Part shown: piece after piece, positions 2,485 to 21,343 of the stretch | Numbering within the stretch: position 1 is the first letter of the stretch | How the letters are laid out: every line of letters begins with the position of its first letter | Origin: Candidatus Helarchaeota archaeon | GTDB taxonomy: Archaea; Asgardarchaeota; Lokiarchaeia; Helarchaeales; RDOG01 | DNA: 64,000 nucleotides | Direction: 5' to 3' | Assembly (NCBI GenBank): GCA_029838215.1 | Contig: JALGVI010000018.1 | Location: forward strand, 1 to 64,000 | The notes under the pieces: generated by a model | Told to the model about the DNA's origin: nothing | Database searches by the model: none | The model's input: the letters and a program-made list of their open reading frames with translations, nothing else | Position numbers and translations under genes: made by a program

Positions 2485-3339
2485 CTAATTAAAATATCTT
2501 GAAAACGTCACGCGAAGAGTATCTTTCATGATTTGGACTTTGACCATGTCAGATTTTGTAACCAGCCCAATTAAGTCCATCGTGCCTTGTTTTACAACGG
2601 GAACGCCGCGCACGCCTTCTTCAATCATTATGCGAGCCGCATCTGCAATACTCGCATTAGGCGTGAGTGTCAGTCCATCTCCTTCAGTATAAATTTTCAT
2701 GAAATCTTCAACGAGAATGTGTCGTAAGCGCTCTTCCTGGTGCTTTTTCTTGACAGAATCTCGAAATTTTGCAAACGCCCTTGCGATCATGCCTTCCGAA
2801 ATAAAACCGACAAGTCTGGGACCTTCACAGACCGGTAAGAACGAAATTTGTTTTTCAAACAGAAGTTTGCGGGCGTGAATCAATCGATCATCAGGTCGAA
2901 CGGTGAAAACATTAGTTGTCATTATCTGTTCGATTGACGAATTCCTGAATTTCAAATTTATTCGTGTTAAAATCGTTTCATCAATCAGACCAATTAGTTC
3001 TCCATTTTTCAAAATGGGGAGACCTGAGGCATTTGTACGGAGCATTATTTCTGCTGCTCTTTCAGTATCAGTATCAGGATCGATGGCTTGAGGAATATCG
3101 CTCTGCACGCTGGAAACACGAATGGAAGATGTCTTGAGCGTGCCTGATTTCTTTGATCCCAACCGATCTGCAAGATCTCTCTCCGTGAGAATTCCCGCAA
3201 GTTCGTTGTTATTCATCGTAAGTAACAAAGAGTTGTTCTGTTTTTCCATCATCTCAATGGCGTCCACGATAAGACGGTCCTTATCAATTGAAACTTTTCT
3301 CAAATCAGTTTCCATTATTTCTGATACTTTCATTTTCAT
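2485..3339 (-). CDS. CBS-domain protein (two CBS pairs)
   Basis: Repeated CBS patterns: VSEIME, LAGILTERDL, IEQIMTTNVFTV, LVGFISEGMI, LIGLVTKSDM. Confidence 0.9.
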   Translation of the reverse strand: MKMKVSEIMETDLRKVSIDKDRLIVDAIEMMEKQNNSLLLTMNNNELAGILTERDLADRLGSKKSGTLKTSSIRVSSVQSDIPQAIDPDTDTERAAEIMLRTNASGLPILKNGELIGLIDETILTRINLKFRNSSIEQIMTTNVFTVRPDDRLIHARKLLFEKQISFLPVCEGPRLVGFISEGMIARAFAKFRDSVKKKHQEERLRHILVEDFMKIYTEGDGLTLTPNASIADAARIMIEEGVRGVPVVKQGTMDLIGLVTKSDMVKVQIMKDTLRVTFSRYFN

Positions 3340-17857: not shown

Positions 17858-18646
17858 ATGTCAGCCATCCTGAGTGTAGATAATGTCTCGATTAACGTGG
17901 AAAATCAAAGGATAATTGAGCGTCTTAATCTTCACGTGCCCGAAGGTGAAAGCTATATCTTATTCGGACCGAATGGTTCCGGAAAATCCACATTTCTCAA
18001 TGCCATCATGGGAGATCCGGGCTATGTTGTCTCTGAAGGCGACATCAAGTTTCGGGGTAAATCCATCGTGAATCTTGAAATGGATGAACGTGCGAGACTT
18101 GGAATCACTCTCAGTTATCAAAATCCCCCTGAGATTCAAGGCATTAAACTGAAAGATCTGCTGAAATTATGCTTGGGTAAGGACAGTAAAGATGATTTTT
18201 CAGAAGAAGAAATGAAATACATCGAACGATTTCGCTTGAAAGAATTTCTTGATCGGGATATTAACATGGGTTTTTCTGGTGGTGAACGCAAGAGATCTGA
18301 AATTCTTCAAATCATGTTTCTAAAGCCAAAGCTCTTGCTCCTTGATGAACCCGATAGTGGTGTGGATGTTGAAAGCCTGAAATTGATCTCGAAGGAATTA
18401 GACGCATATCTTAAAAAAACAAAATCCTCAGCAATTATCGTAACTCATCGCGGTGATATTCTTAAATACATATCAGTACAGAAAGCAGTCGTGCTTTTAG
18501 AAAATACCATGTATTGCTTTAGCAGTCCGGAAAATGTATACAAACAGATCCGTGAATTGGGGTATCGTGGTTGCATTGAATGCGATCATAAAATAAAATG
18601 CGAAAGAACGAATATTTTTTGCAAGGAGACAGACAACGTTGCCTGA
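17858..18646 (+). CDS. sufC: Fe-S assembly ATPase SufC (minimal SUF/SMS type, C-terminal Cys motif)
   Basis: GPNGSGKST, FSGGERKRSE, LLDEPDSGVD, and C-terminal CIEC...C. Confidence 0.93.
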   Translation: MSAILSVDNVSINVENQRIIERLNLHVPEGESYILFGPNGSGKSTFLNAIMGDPGYVVSEGDIKFRGKSIVNLEMDERARLGITLSYQNPPEIQGIKLKDLLKLCLGKDSKDDFSEEEMKYIERFRLKEFLDRDINMGFSGGERKRSEILQIMFLKPKLLLLDEPDSGVDVESLKLISKELDAYLKKTKSSAIIVTHRGDILKYISVQKAVVLLENTMYCFSSPENVYKQIRELGYRGCIECDHKIKCERTNIFCKETDNVA

Positions 18647-19760
18647 AAAAATCTCAAAACTTCAGGAACTTCCTCATGAAATCCTAGAAGCCGCCTATAA
18701 AACTGGTATAGACGGCGAAACGAAAGGACGGGCAGGAACATTTTTCCACCTGGACCAGTCTACGGTATATTCGAAAATCAATGAAACATTTGAAAACAAA
18801 TTAGAGATGATGGATCTAAAAGATGCTCTGGCCAAATATGAGTGGCTAAAGAATTATCAATGGAACCTCGTGGACCCCGATAAAGATGCATTCACGCAGA
18901 AAGTTTCTGATGAATATGGTGGTGGGTATTTTATTCGAATACTTCCACACGCCGAAATCGTGTTTCCCTTGCAATCGTGCTTATTTGTCCAAAAGAAAAA
19001 TTTTGAGCAACGCGTTCATAACATAATCATTGCCGAAGAAGGTAGTAAGTGCCATATCATCACGGGATGTGTCATGCATCCTCACGCAGGGTCTGGTTCA
19101 CACTTGGGAATTTCAGAAATTTACGTGAGAAAAAATGCAGAACTTAACTTCACGATGATCCATAATTGGACACCTGAAACCTTCGTTCGACCTCGGAGTG
19201 CCACGCTAGTCGAAGATGGCGGCAAATACGTGTCAAACTACATCTCATTAGAACCCGTAAAGGACGTGCAGATGTACCCTGCCGTGACATGCGAGGGCAA
19301 CAATTCAATTGCGAGCTTAAATAGCATCATTTATGCTCATAAAGGCTCTCATCTGGATATTGGTTCAAAAATAATTCTAAAGGGAAAAAATAGCAATGGC
19401 GAAGTGATGTCAAGGGTACTTGCAAAAGAAAGCTCTTCCGTGATTGCTCGTGGATACATTGCAGGTAATGGTGATGGCTCAAAGGGTCATCTTGAGTGCC
19501 GGGGACTCCTAATGGACGATGAATCTCAGATAATGTCGATACCTGAATTGCTGGCAACCCGGAAGAACATCGACTTGACTCATGAAGCCGCCGTTGGCAA
19601 GATCGCCGATAAAGAAATCACGTATTTAATGTCACGACGACTCTCACGAGATGAAGCTGTTTCTTTAATCATTCGTGGATTCCTAAATGTTGGAATACTT
19701 GGACTGCCTCAAGAATTAAATGCAGAGATTCAAAAAATAGTCGATACTGTCATCGAATAA
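18639..19760 (+). CDS. sufB: Fe-S assembly scaffold, SufB/SufD family
   Basis: PLQSC...QRVHNIIIAEEGS, KGHLECRGLL, SIPEL...THEAAVGKI, YLMSRRLS. Confidence 0.92.
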   Translation: MPEKISKLQELPHEILEAAYKTGIDGETKGRAGTFFHLDQSTVYSKINETFENKLEMMDLKDALAKYEWLKNYQWNLVDPDKDAFTQKVSDEYGGGYFIRILPHAEIVFPLQSCLFVQKKNFEQRVHNIIIAEEGSKCHIITGCVMHPHAGSGSHLGISEIYVRKNAELNFTMIHNWTPETFVRPRSATLVEDGGKYVSNYISLEPVKDVQMYPAVTCEGNNSIASLNSIIYAHKGSHLDIGSKIILKGKNSNGEVMSRVLAKESSSVIARGYIAGNGDGSKGHLECRGLLMDDESQIMSIPELLATRKNIDLTHEAAVGKIADKEITYLMSRRLSRDEAVSLIIRGFLNVGILGLPQELNAEIQKIVDTVIE

Positions 19761-19904: not shown

Positions 19905-20132
19905 GTGAAACGAATGAAAAGATGGTGTCCGTTTTGTGAATCCCTTTCATCAAAAAAAGTCGGACAGGGTTATTGTGAAAGATGCAGGCAGGATATGTCT
20001 ATTTTTCATTGTGATAAATGCGGCAAAACATTTTATTCTTGTAATCATGAACATGAGAAGTATGTCATCTGGGATTCCCCTAGCTCGAAGCGCTCGCAGG
20101 AGCCATCAAACTCCGCTGGCTCATTCGAATGA
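19905..20132 (+). CDS. Small Cys-rich Zn-binding protein
   Basis: 75 aa with CPFC, CERC, CDKC and CNH. Confidence 0.6.
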   Translation: MKRMKRWCPFCESLSSKKVGQGYCERCRQDMSIFHCDKCGKTFYSCNHEHEKYVIWDSPSSKRSQEPSNSAGSFE

Positions 20133-20217
20133 ACAAGTAAGATTTGAAATTGATGGAAATTTCCTAGTTAAGTTTTTTTAGTCGTCTTCGTACAATATTT
20201 ATGGATGACGGAAAATT

Positions 20218-20485
20218 GTTTCTCAGATCGAGGACTGATGCAGCTGCAGCAATGACCATCAGAGCAAACTGAGAAACACACCTGACAGGAGTAACTCTTA
20301 AATTCCATTAAAATGGGCTCTCCTTAAGGAAAGAGGTACCTCCTCCCTATGATAGCGAGTCAGCTTACCCAAATGGAAGACAGGTTACTCACAAAAAAAC
20401 TGGCAAAAACCCTGCATTCGAGAGAACTTGATTGAGAGACTGGTTTGACCAATCAATGAGATCAAGCGTTAGTGCTTGGGGCACA
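20218..20485 (+). ncRNA. Three-hairpin H/ACA pseudouridylation guide RNA
   Basis: Three consecutive stem-internal loop-stem hairpins, each followed by ACA (20278-80, 20391-93, 20483-85). Hairpin 3 has a K-turn. The hairpin 1 pocket (AUCGAGG / GCAAA) matches archaeal 23S UUUGC-UA-CCUCGAU. Confidence 0.85.
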
Positions 20486-20491
20486 GCCAGT

Positions 20492-21343
20492 TTAATCCTT
20501 TTTTACTAAAATATCGAGAACAACGTGATACACGTGGGGTTTAAAACTTTTCACGCGAACGACTTTCAGCAGTTCAATTTCTCGGTTGTAATCATCTGCA
20601 ACTTGTTGAACCGAGTGAAATAAGGGATTTTCCTCATCAGTATCGCTTAATAAACCTTCATAATGGATGAAAGCATCACCCTCCGTGAGAACTTGAAAAG
20701 CAACGGGCAGTGCATCTTTGGGCGCGGGGAGAATTCCCATTATAACGCGATCGGCGATATTACCAATCTTTGGAGCTTCAATCTTGCAATCTCCAAGAAT
20801 TGGCGTTATTTTATCGTCTAATTTGTTTAATTTGATGTTTCTCTTTAAATAATAGTAGGATGTCGGATTGATTTCAAATGCATAGACTTGCTCGGGATTC
20901 GCAAACCGGGCGATGTTCAAACTGAAATACCCTATTCCTGCAAAAAAATCAAAAACTATTTCACCATCTCGTACCAATTCGGGGATTCTTCTGCGCTCAT
21001 TTATATTTCCCTTGCTAAACATGATTTTTGCACAATCAAATTCATATATCGTGCCATGCTCCTTGTGTTGCGTCTCTGTTGAATCACCGATTAATAATTC
21101 CACTTGTGGCATGCGGTGTTGTCCCGTGATTTCCCCCACGTTTAAACAAACTGTCTTGCAATTCGAAATTAATTTTTTAACTTGGCTTGCAATGGCTTGT
21201 TTTTTTACCCATAATTTCTTATCTAAGTTTAAAATCACGACAGAGCCCACTTGTTGGTAGCCCTTCGGAAGGATAGACAATTCATCTTGAGCTAGAACAT
21301 TTCGTAGATTCTGACGAAGTTTTTCCCGGAATGTTTGCTTCAT
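20492..21343 (-). CDS. Trm5/Taw2 (TYW2) family SAM-dependent tRNA-modifying enzyme
   Basis: HKEHGTIYEFDCAKIMFSKGN...ER, VFDFFAGIGYFSL, FEINP, ADRVIMG. Confidence 0.88.
   Translation of the reverse strand: MKQTFREKLRQNLRNVLAQDELSILPKGYQQVGSVVILNLDKKLWVKKQAIASQVKKLISNCKTVCLNVGEITGQHRMPQVELLIGDSTETQHKEHGTIYEFDCAKIMFSKGNINERRRIPELVRDGEIVFDFFAGIGYFSLNIARFANPEQVYAFEINPTSYYYLKRNIKLNKLDDKITPILGDCKIEAPKIGNIADRVIMGILPAPKDALPVAFQVLTEGDAFIHYEGLLSDTDEENPLFHSVQQVADDYNREIELLKVVRVKSFKPHVYHVVLDILVKKD

Follow-up and report, generated by a model that had tools for sequence, protein, structure and literature searches.

An unannotated three-hairpin archaeal box H/ACA guide RNA was identified in the genome of Candidatus Helarchaeota archaeon (assembly GCA_029838215.1), within a stretch of 64,000 nucleotides (nt) comprising positions 1 to 64,000 of the forward strand of contig JALGVI010000018.1, referred to here as the window. 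All stems, pockets and ACA boxes of such an RNA are present. The gene occupies approximately positions 20203-20504 of the plus strand (about 300 nt), on which all elements of the RNA described below are located, and is single-copy; a search with a relaxed regular expression, which gave many chance matches, found no second three-module locus in the same genome. The RNA element lies within an interval of about 360 nt that separates two convergent genes, a small zinc-ribbon open reading frame (ORF) on its 5' side (19905-20132, plus strand) and a gene encoding a Trm5/Taw2-type methyltransferase (20492-21343, minus strand), which is convergent with the RNA gene. The terminal stem of the RNA overlaps the stop codon of the methyltransferase gene (20492-20494), and the oligo-T run at 20499-20504 is a likely archaeal terminator. 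Runs of T6-T9 are found in the copy of this genome (G000), in a relative of the same family (G001) and in G004, and a short T4 run is found in G002; the latter two genomes represent a second family of the order Helarchaeales. The bounds 20218-20485 proposed in a preliminary description, which was prepared from the sequence alone, were too short. The RNA is very probably the Helarchaeales (Asgard) version of the three-motif small RNA (sRNA) Pab40/Pf7/Pho40/Afu4 (HgcG in Rfam) and would act as a three-module guide. Position numbers are those of the window, and large-subunit (LSU) and small-subunit (SSU) numbers are those of the organism's own rRNAs.

Module 1 (20218-20280) is an H/ACA guide hairpin composed of a lower stem (P1), a pocket, an upper stem (P2), a degenerate kink-turn (K-turn) and an ACA box. 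P1 consists of 9 base pairs (bp) between GUUUCUCAG (20218-20226) and CUGAGAAAC (20269-20277), and P2 consists of 6 bp between CUGAUG (20235-20240) and CAUCAG (20257-20262). The pocket between them is formed by the 8-nt 5' guide AUCGAGGA (20227-20234) and the 6-nt 3' guide AGCAAA (20263-20268). The degenerate K-turn lies within 20241-20256, and the ACA box (20278-20280) follows P2 at exactly 15 nt, a spacing shared by all four Helarchaeales copies. The stems, pocket, P2 and ACA box that had been listed for hairpin 1 are all present in the sequence, as are the helix CUUGAU/AUCAAG, the K-turn UGA...AAUGAG and the ACA box 16 nt from P2 that had been listed for hairpin 3.

Module 1 is enclosed by a box C/D-like K-turn, which is formed by pairing of a 5' leader containing the box-C-like element GAUGA-C-GGA (20203-20212) with the linker CC-U-GA-CAG (20281-20288), in which CC-U-GA (20281-20285) is the box-D-like half. 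The leader UGA-N-GGA and the linker ACA-UCC-N-GA occur in 26 of 30 relatives, and two more carry a compensatory GAA/UUC. This leader-linker K-turn would provide the RNA with a fourth site for L7Ae. The possibility that the leader encodes a conserved small ORF was rejected, as its start codon and frame vary among the homologues.

Module 2 (20289-20390) contains a clamp helix, P1, a pocket, a second helix (H2), a K-turn and an ANA box. The clamp helix GAGUAAC (20289-20295)/GUUACUC (20384-20390) lies below P1, a stem of 7 bp formed by UUCCAUU (20303-20309) and AAUGGAA (20372-20378). The 5' guide AAAAUGGGCU (20310-20319, 10 nt) and the 3' guide UCAGCUUACCCA (20360-20371, 12 nt) lead to H2, in which CUCCUU (20320-20325) and UAG(C)GAG (20353-20359) form six layers. 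The K-turn, AA (20326-20327) opposite UAU-GA (20348-20352), has a G.A plus an A.A pair family-wide. The stems assigned to hairpin 2 in the preliminary description and the ACA that follows them (20391-20393) exist in the sequence, but the anatomy was wrong. The conserved ANA box of the module is the ACA at 20380-20382, which lies in the lower internal loop directly after UUCCAUU/AAUGGAA, so this helix is the lower stem and GAGUAAC/GUUACUC, the supposed P1, is a clamp below it. The ACA after GUUACUC is missing from G001, G004 and G002, which have CCU, GUU and AUG at the same place, respectively.

Module 3 is located in an outer clamp helix (20397-20493) and contains an outer stem, P1, a pocket, P2, a K-turn and an ACA box. 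The outer stem pairs AAACUGGC (20397-20404) with GCCAGUUU (20486-20493), the latter strand starting right after the ACA box. P1 is formed by CCCUGC (20410-20415) and GCUUGGG (20474-20480), with 5-6 bp and a U bulge, and the 6 bp of P2 are formed by CUUGAU (20427-20432) and AUCAAG (20461-20466). The 5' guide AUUCGAGAGAA (20416-20426) and the 3' guide CGUUAGU (20467-20473) are 11 and 7 nt long, respectively. The K-turn, U-GA (20433-20435) opposite AAU-GA-G (20455-20460), is canonical. The ACA box (20483-20485) is placed 16 nt after P2 in this copy and 17-18 nt after P2 in relatives.

Conservation of the RNA was first apparent from its position. Syntenic copies of 295-333 nt, which are alignable and end in a T-run, were identified downstream of the Trm5 orthologue in G001, G002 and G004, and in the third family of Helarchaeales another neighbour is found at this place. 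BLAST of the region against 60 relatives returned chance matches only, save one weak match that was later shown to be syntenic, and a covariance model (R1) built from the hairpin 1 sequence alone detected no homologue in genome-wide searches of 60 relatives. On the syntenic loci, the R1 model scored 24, 16 and 10.5 bits, and the resulting alignment was too noisy for reuse. A first contig scan with one single protein as the query gave no match. A metagenome scan with a Trm5 alignment recovered 80 loci, of which 79 had no motifs of the RNA downstream and one yielded a further copy; the synteny is therefore confined to Helarchaeales.

The distribution of the RNA beyond this order was revealed by a strict hairpin 1 pattern with fixed spacings (TCGAGG, 13-19 nt, GATGA, 9 nt, CAA, 10 nt, ACA). 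This pattern matched 41 of 400 genomes of the Asgard phylum, and a reversed-pattern control matched 1. The matches share several features that the pattern did not require: P2 is complementary and rich in compensatory changes, GAUGA faces a GA, and CAA is invariably preceded by G. The same three-module order follows the match in most of 30 fetched loci. Two exact patterns gave no copy in Promethearchaeum syntrophicum MK-D1, where one match fell in coding sequence; this result does not imply absence.

Covariation was counted on MAFFT alignments, with 500 shuffles and partner columns slid by 1-3 positions as controls. In module 1, P2 is 96.8% paired and five of its six pairs are changed on both sides. 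The clamp, P1 and H2 of module 2 are 100%, 92% and 80% paired, respectively (26 sequences; 16 pairs changed on both sides), and P1 and P2 of module 3 are 90% and 84% paired (27 sequences; 14 pairs changed on both sides). None of the 500 shuffles reached the score of any module, and sliding of the partner columns lowered pairing to 22-63%. The outer stem of module 3 switches from CUGGC/GCCAG to UUGGU/ACCAA between families. Compensatory base changes are present in all three modules and the guide words are without changes. The search for covariation in Asgard homologues, which the preliminary description had suggested, was positive for each module. The larger sister family (f4, loci L136-L162) has a UGGG that precedes the leader box by about 20 nt and is able to pair with a CCCA just beyond the clamp of module 2. 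Such a helix would join modules 1 and 2 in one domain and seems to be missing from G000 and G001.

All four H/ACA ribonucleoprotein (RNP) proteins (Cbf5, Nop10, Gar1 and L7Ae) are encoded in the genome with scores above the Pfam cut-offs. Cbf5 has a dyskerin-like DKCLD domain, and the L7Ae family is present in two copies. The rRNA set consists of one 23S gene (C165:55169-58635, minus strand, 3467 nt) and one 16S gene. Structure, conservation, complementarity to rRNA and the protein genes are direct observations; by analogy with characterized archaeal guides, the RNA would be transcribed and assembled into an RNP that modifies the 23S rRNA. L7Ae would bind the K-turns, and each lower stem, together with its ANA box, would serve as a docking site for Cbf5-Nop10-Gar1. 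Pairing of the 23S pre-rRNA with both strands of each internal loop would leave one uridine unpaired in the active site of Cbf5, by which it would be isomerised to pseudouridine (Psi).

The organism's own 23S rRNA reads GGCUUGC-UU-CCUCGAUGUC at the target of module 1. The pocket pairs with LSU 3014-3027 through GCAA/UUGC and AUCGAGG/CCUCGAU (4 + 7 bp, 11 Watson-Crick pairs), and the UU at LSU 3018-3019 stays unpaired in the duplex. This score is attained in 1.3% of trials with random pockets and in 0.13% with shuffled ones (P about 0.001-0.013). The target is identical in the 23S rRNA of G001, the one relative with an assembled 23S. GCAA and UCGAGG are constant family-wide and the nucleotide topping each pocket strand varies; the constant words thereby tie the unpaired dinucleotide to the equivalent of E. 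coli 2496-2497. For the family, module 1 is predicted with good confidence to expose U3018, which corresponds to E. coli 2496, Psi2588 of Pyrococcus abyssi and Psi2865 of yeast. The original proposal of a three-hairpin H/ACA RNA with hairpin 1 aimed at the equivalent of E. coli 2496 is thus supported by 4 + 7 bp with the own 23S rRNA and by guide words kept phylum-wide. The site had been expected to read UUUGC-UN-CCUCGAU, and its lack was to speak against the proposal. The sequence present is CUUGC-UU-CCUCGAU and not UUUGC-UA-CCUCGAU, which departs from the expected letters and is not counted as a refutation because only the outermost pair is lost.

The sole invariant loop nucleotides of module 3 in the 27 sequences are GAGAG on the 5' strand and GUUAGU on the 3' strand, and the ACA box is also invariant. 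These words fit the loop of helix 69, which reads GUAAC-UAUAA-CUCUC in the own 23S rRNA and in that of G001. The pairing involves GUUA/UAAC (or UAGU/ACUA) and GAGAG/CUCUC and leaves UAUAA unpaired (LSU 2093). A site of this type is unique in the real rRNAs and was seen in 22 of 2000 shuffled rRNAs. Module 3 would thus probably expose U2093 of the helix 69 loop, and possibly U2095, which are equivalent to E. coli 1915 and 1917, in an open UNUN-like pairing. Other candidate sites of this module were rejected: LSU 2943 is located inside an insertion that is absent from G001, and SSU 1403 and SSU 409-430 had the wrong spacing or were specific to G000. The pocket first tried for hairpin 3 (CGAGAGAA/CGUU) gave weak matches only.

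In module 2, GGGC, AGYCAG and the two A's of the ANA box are conserved family-wide. The best rRNA match of this module is GGGCUG-UAC-GCCCAUU at LSU 3070-3085 in the A-loop, with 6 + 7 bp and UAC unpaired, and the A-loop site is identical in G001. The A-loop uridine that module 2 would expose is U3076, which corresponds to E. coli 2554 and to Psi2923 of yeast. This prediction is evenly balanced between true and false, and the target assignment is weaker than those of modules 1 and 3. A 16S target had been suggested tentatively for hairpin 2; no such site of at least 8 bp was found, and the true pocket, which is located higher up in the module, fits the A-loop and not the 16S rRNA. The pocket on which that suggestion was based (UCUUAAA/GACAG) has no rRNA target of at least 8 bp.

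Two insertions in the 23S rRNA are absent from that of G001 (3159 nt). One of about 249 nt at 2107-2355 begins just past the 3' flank of helix 69, and the other, of about 98 nt at 2900-2997, falls within helix 89, its end lying about 20 nt ahead of the target of module 1. The two insertions are next to H/ACA target sites and could represent rRNA introns of the archaeal type, or expansion segments.

Archaeal H/ACA motifs are described by a lower stem of at least 7 bp, an internal loop of 5-11 nt per strand, an upper stem and an ANA box at 14-15 nt (PMC2377435). The ANA box is single-stranded, directly 3' of the lower stem, and its spacing is counted from the top of the pocket. A K-turn or kink-loop (K-loop), with tandem sheared G.A/A.G pairs and a bulge of 3 nt, is expected 5-6 bp above the pocket, and the two pocket strands of a guide pair with a stable RNA by at least 8-9 bp in total, with U-N left unpaired. 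The lower stem, loop strands and upper stem measure 9 bp, 8 + 6 nt and 6 bp in module 1, 7 bp, 10 + 12 nt and 6 bp in module 2, and 5-6 bp, 11 + 7 nt and 6 bp in module 3. The ANA box is conserved in all three modules, at spacings of 15, 20 and 16 nt, respectively. In P. abyssi, Pab40 motif 1 makes Psi2588, as determined by carbodiimide (CMCT) mapping and reconstitution in vitro, and U2016 of helix 69 is the substrate of motif 3 upon reconstitution (PMC2377435). Motif 2 of Pab40 is aberrant and weakly active, and its proposed targets vary between species; the target proposed for motif 2 of Afu4 corresponds to P. abyssi 2647 (PMC2377435). Like Pab40/Pf7/Pho40/Afu4, the Asgard RNA has three H/ACA motifs, which follow one another in the same order and all contain a K-turn or K-loop and an ANA box. 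The guides GCGAGG/GCGA of Pab40 motif 1 correspond to UCGAGG/GCAA in the Asgard RNA and address the same helix 89 uridine. Likewise, UGUUA of Pab40 motif 3 corresponds to CGUUA, with GUUA topping the 3' guide, and both are directed at the helix 69 loop; this match suggests, and does not prove, a common target. Motif 2 is aberrant in both RNAs. The differences include the 5' guide of module 3, which is GAGAGAA in the Asgard RNA and GGUUAG in Pab40, the unpaired UAUAA and spacing of 16-18 nt in place of 15 nt in this module, and the 20-nt spacing of module 2, which is unlike that of Pab40. The clamp helix after each ANA box and the C/D-like bracket on module 1 are described here for the Asgard copies.

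The E. coli sites of RluE, RluC and RluB (2457, 2580 and 2605) are taken here to be equivalent to the P. abyssi sites of Pab35 (2549, 2672 and 2697), respectively. These three matched sites give an offset of 92, by which P. abyssi 2588 equals E. coli 2496 and P. abyssi 2647 equals E. coli 2555, next to the A-loop uridine. The Rfam model of HgcG (RF00064) aligns over its full length at loci found with the hairpin 1 pattern, namely L163 (21 bits, E = 0.026) and G310 (23.8 bits, E = 1e-4), both of which are GC-richer members of the family. The scores of these relatives (21-24 bits) are far below the 77-bit gathering score.

A further similar RNA is sR-h45 of Haloferax volcanii, whose stem-loop 2 (SL2) directs the two pseudouridines of helix 69, which lie in a UNUN loop 17 and 19 nt from the ACA box (PMC7075261). 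Pseudouridylation at spacings of up to 19 nt is possible when an ACA box is present, and the spacer of sR-h45 is dispensable (PMC7075261). The likeness to module 3 lies in one hairpin pocket that guides the equivalents of E. coli 1915 and 1917 with an open target and a long ACA spacing; sR-h45 also has a large structured spacer between its hairpins and depends on the ACA box as well as on sheared G:A pairs. However, sR-h45 has two hairpins and not three, and its other hairpin targets Psi2605 (between helices 90 and 93) and not helix 89.

In yeast, the same three sites are served by snR46 (foot of helix 89, at the peptidyl transferase centre), snR10 (A-loop) and snR191 (loop of helix 69). Yeast and E. 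coli positions are presumably related by a constant offset of 369. This value is consistent with the 5-methylcytidine m5C2870, which is marked as conserved in E. coli in the table of PMC8307265. The sites of snR46 (25S Psi2865), snR10 (Psi2923) and snR191 (Psi2258/2260) are conserved in yeast and human (PMC8307265). The eukaryotic guides are separate hairpin-hinge-hairpin-tail small nucleolar RNAs (snoRNAs) without K-turns and with Nhp2 for L7Ae, whereas the Asgard guides are fused in a single RNA of the archaeal type.

It is quite improbable that the Asgard form is a distinct architectural variant, with clamped ANA boxes, a C/D-like bracket and long spacings of 16-20 nt with open target loops, and not a plain orthologue of the known RNA. 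If this were true, a rigid scaffold with multiple K-turns could hold three Cbf5 units and install pseudouridines at the peptidyl transferase centre, in the A-loop and in helix 69, all three during a single encounter. Such a form, with an ANA (H box) between helices, could also be a step toward the eukaryotic hairpin-hinge-hairpin form.

Several observations weigh against the identification of the RNA as a three-module HgcG-type guide and against its predicted targets. A scan of the window with Rfam gave no match at the gathering score, and a scan of 20000-20700 at E values of up to 10 gave nothing relevant. The K-turn of the own module 1, CAG ... AAU-GA-C, contains at best G.A plus A.C. A canonical K-loop (N-GA ... 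GAU-GA-N) is present in module 1 of 31 other aligned copies, G000 being the sole exception of 32. The 3' guide duplex of module 1 has just 4 bp; the 3' duplex is the more important one, and a guide with a 3' duplex of 4 bp including two G.U pairs failed (PMC2377435). In Haloferax, activity in vivo disappeared when the sheared G:A pairs were lost (PMC7075261). The pairing of module 3 comprises only 4 + 5 bp, with a spacing of 16-18 nt. In module 2, the second sheared position of the K-turn is A.A, the target score alone is not significant (shuffled pockets are as good in 6% of trials, P = 0.06), and the spacing from H2 to the ANA box is 20 nt compared to the canonical 14-15 nt, constant in three hand-counted copies (G000, G001 and L143).

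The irregularities of module 2 agree with a reading in which only modules 1 and 3 guide and the middle domain is a structured, L7Ae-binding spacer without a target, comparable to the dispensable spacer of sR-h45. The module 2 pocket can close on itself by pairing of UGGG in the 5' guide with ACCCA of its own 3' strand, and, together with the long spacing and the P value of 0.06, the likewise aberrant and weakly active motif 2 of Pab40, with targets that differ between species, points in this direction. Conservation of the ANA box, GGGC and AGYCAG is nevertheless far beyond the need of a spacer, and the conserved letters coincide with the predicted A-loop pairs. The target of Afu4 motif 2 (P. 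abyssi 2647, E. coli 2555) lies beside U2554, and modification at spacings of up to 19 nt is possible with an ACA box; a spacer without a target is a serious but somewhat doubtful alternative. The degenerate K-turn of module 1 raises a different issue, since it lowers the odds that the module 1 target holds for the copy of this genome. It is unlikely that the family is functional and this module 1 is decaying, having lost its K-loop and no longer directing Psi at U3018. The loss of N-GA ... GAU-GA-N in G000 alone of 32, which is missed by the strict pattern, the 3' guide duplex of 4 bp and the need for sheared G:A pairs in Haloferax would fit such decay. Against this, the 9-bp P1, the 6-bp P2, the guide words on both strands and the ACA box at 15 nt have been retained, and the sequence could still be arranged with G.A plus A.C, an AAU bulge and a C-stem of 2 bp. 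Some known K-turns deviate from G.A/A.G at their second position. No second three-module guide was found elsewhere in the genome with the relaxed pattern.

Two further explanations would remove the RNA from the H/ACA class altogether. Words that could indicate a long box C/D-type methylation guide are present, namely GAUGA-C-GGA in the leader and CUGA in the linker, which together make up a C/D-like K-turn, and several GAUGA words inside the RNA. This assignment is scarcely tenable, as the RNA has neither a D'/C' pair nor, upstream of a D box, any guide segments of 12 nt; every GAUGA word is part of a hairpin K-turn, 5-7 layers above an internal loop, and three conserved ANA boxes are found at the foot of lower stems. 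The locus might also hold no RNA gene, but chance hairpins in a 3' untranslated region or terminator, or a cysteine-rich micro-ORF of 46 amino acids on the minus strand (20168-20308), which exists and overlaps module 1. Both strands fold better than shuffles, the minus strand at least as well as the plus strand (z = -3.2 and -2.4, respectively), and folding energy therefore cannot tell the strands apart. The ACA boxes, GA motifs and T-run are strand-specific and conserved on the plus strand. The micro-ORF is not kept in the homologues, and the finding that no ORF is common to the four Helarchaeales copies on either strand in any frame disposes of it. Furthermore, the stems carry compensatory changes and the guide words none, and the RNA is found across the phylum whereas 79 of 80 metagenomic Trm5 loci have no motifs downstream. 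The absence of an RNA gene is thus extremely improbable.

Identification of a three-module guide of the HgcG type adds a well-supported non-coding gene to the Asgard annotation, copies of which are missed by Rfam-based pipelines; the alignments could be used to start a covariance model of the family's Asgard branch. A fused guide for three sites in the catalytic core of the ribosome (at the foot of helix 89, in the A-loop and in helix 69) would be common to Euryarchaeota and Asgard archaea. Guidance by RNA of these three pseudouridines, for which eukaryotes use separate snoRNAs, therefore probably existed already in their archaeal ancestor. As a diverged copy of a known RNA, it leaves the current view of how H/ACA guides work unchanged.

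The surroundings of the gene are ordinary-looking. Just upstream of the zinc-ribbon ORF, genes encoding a SufC-like ABC ATPase and SufB/D, which are involved in Fe-S cluster assembly, are located at 17858-19760.

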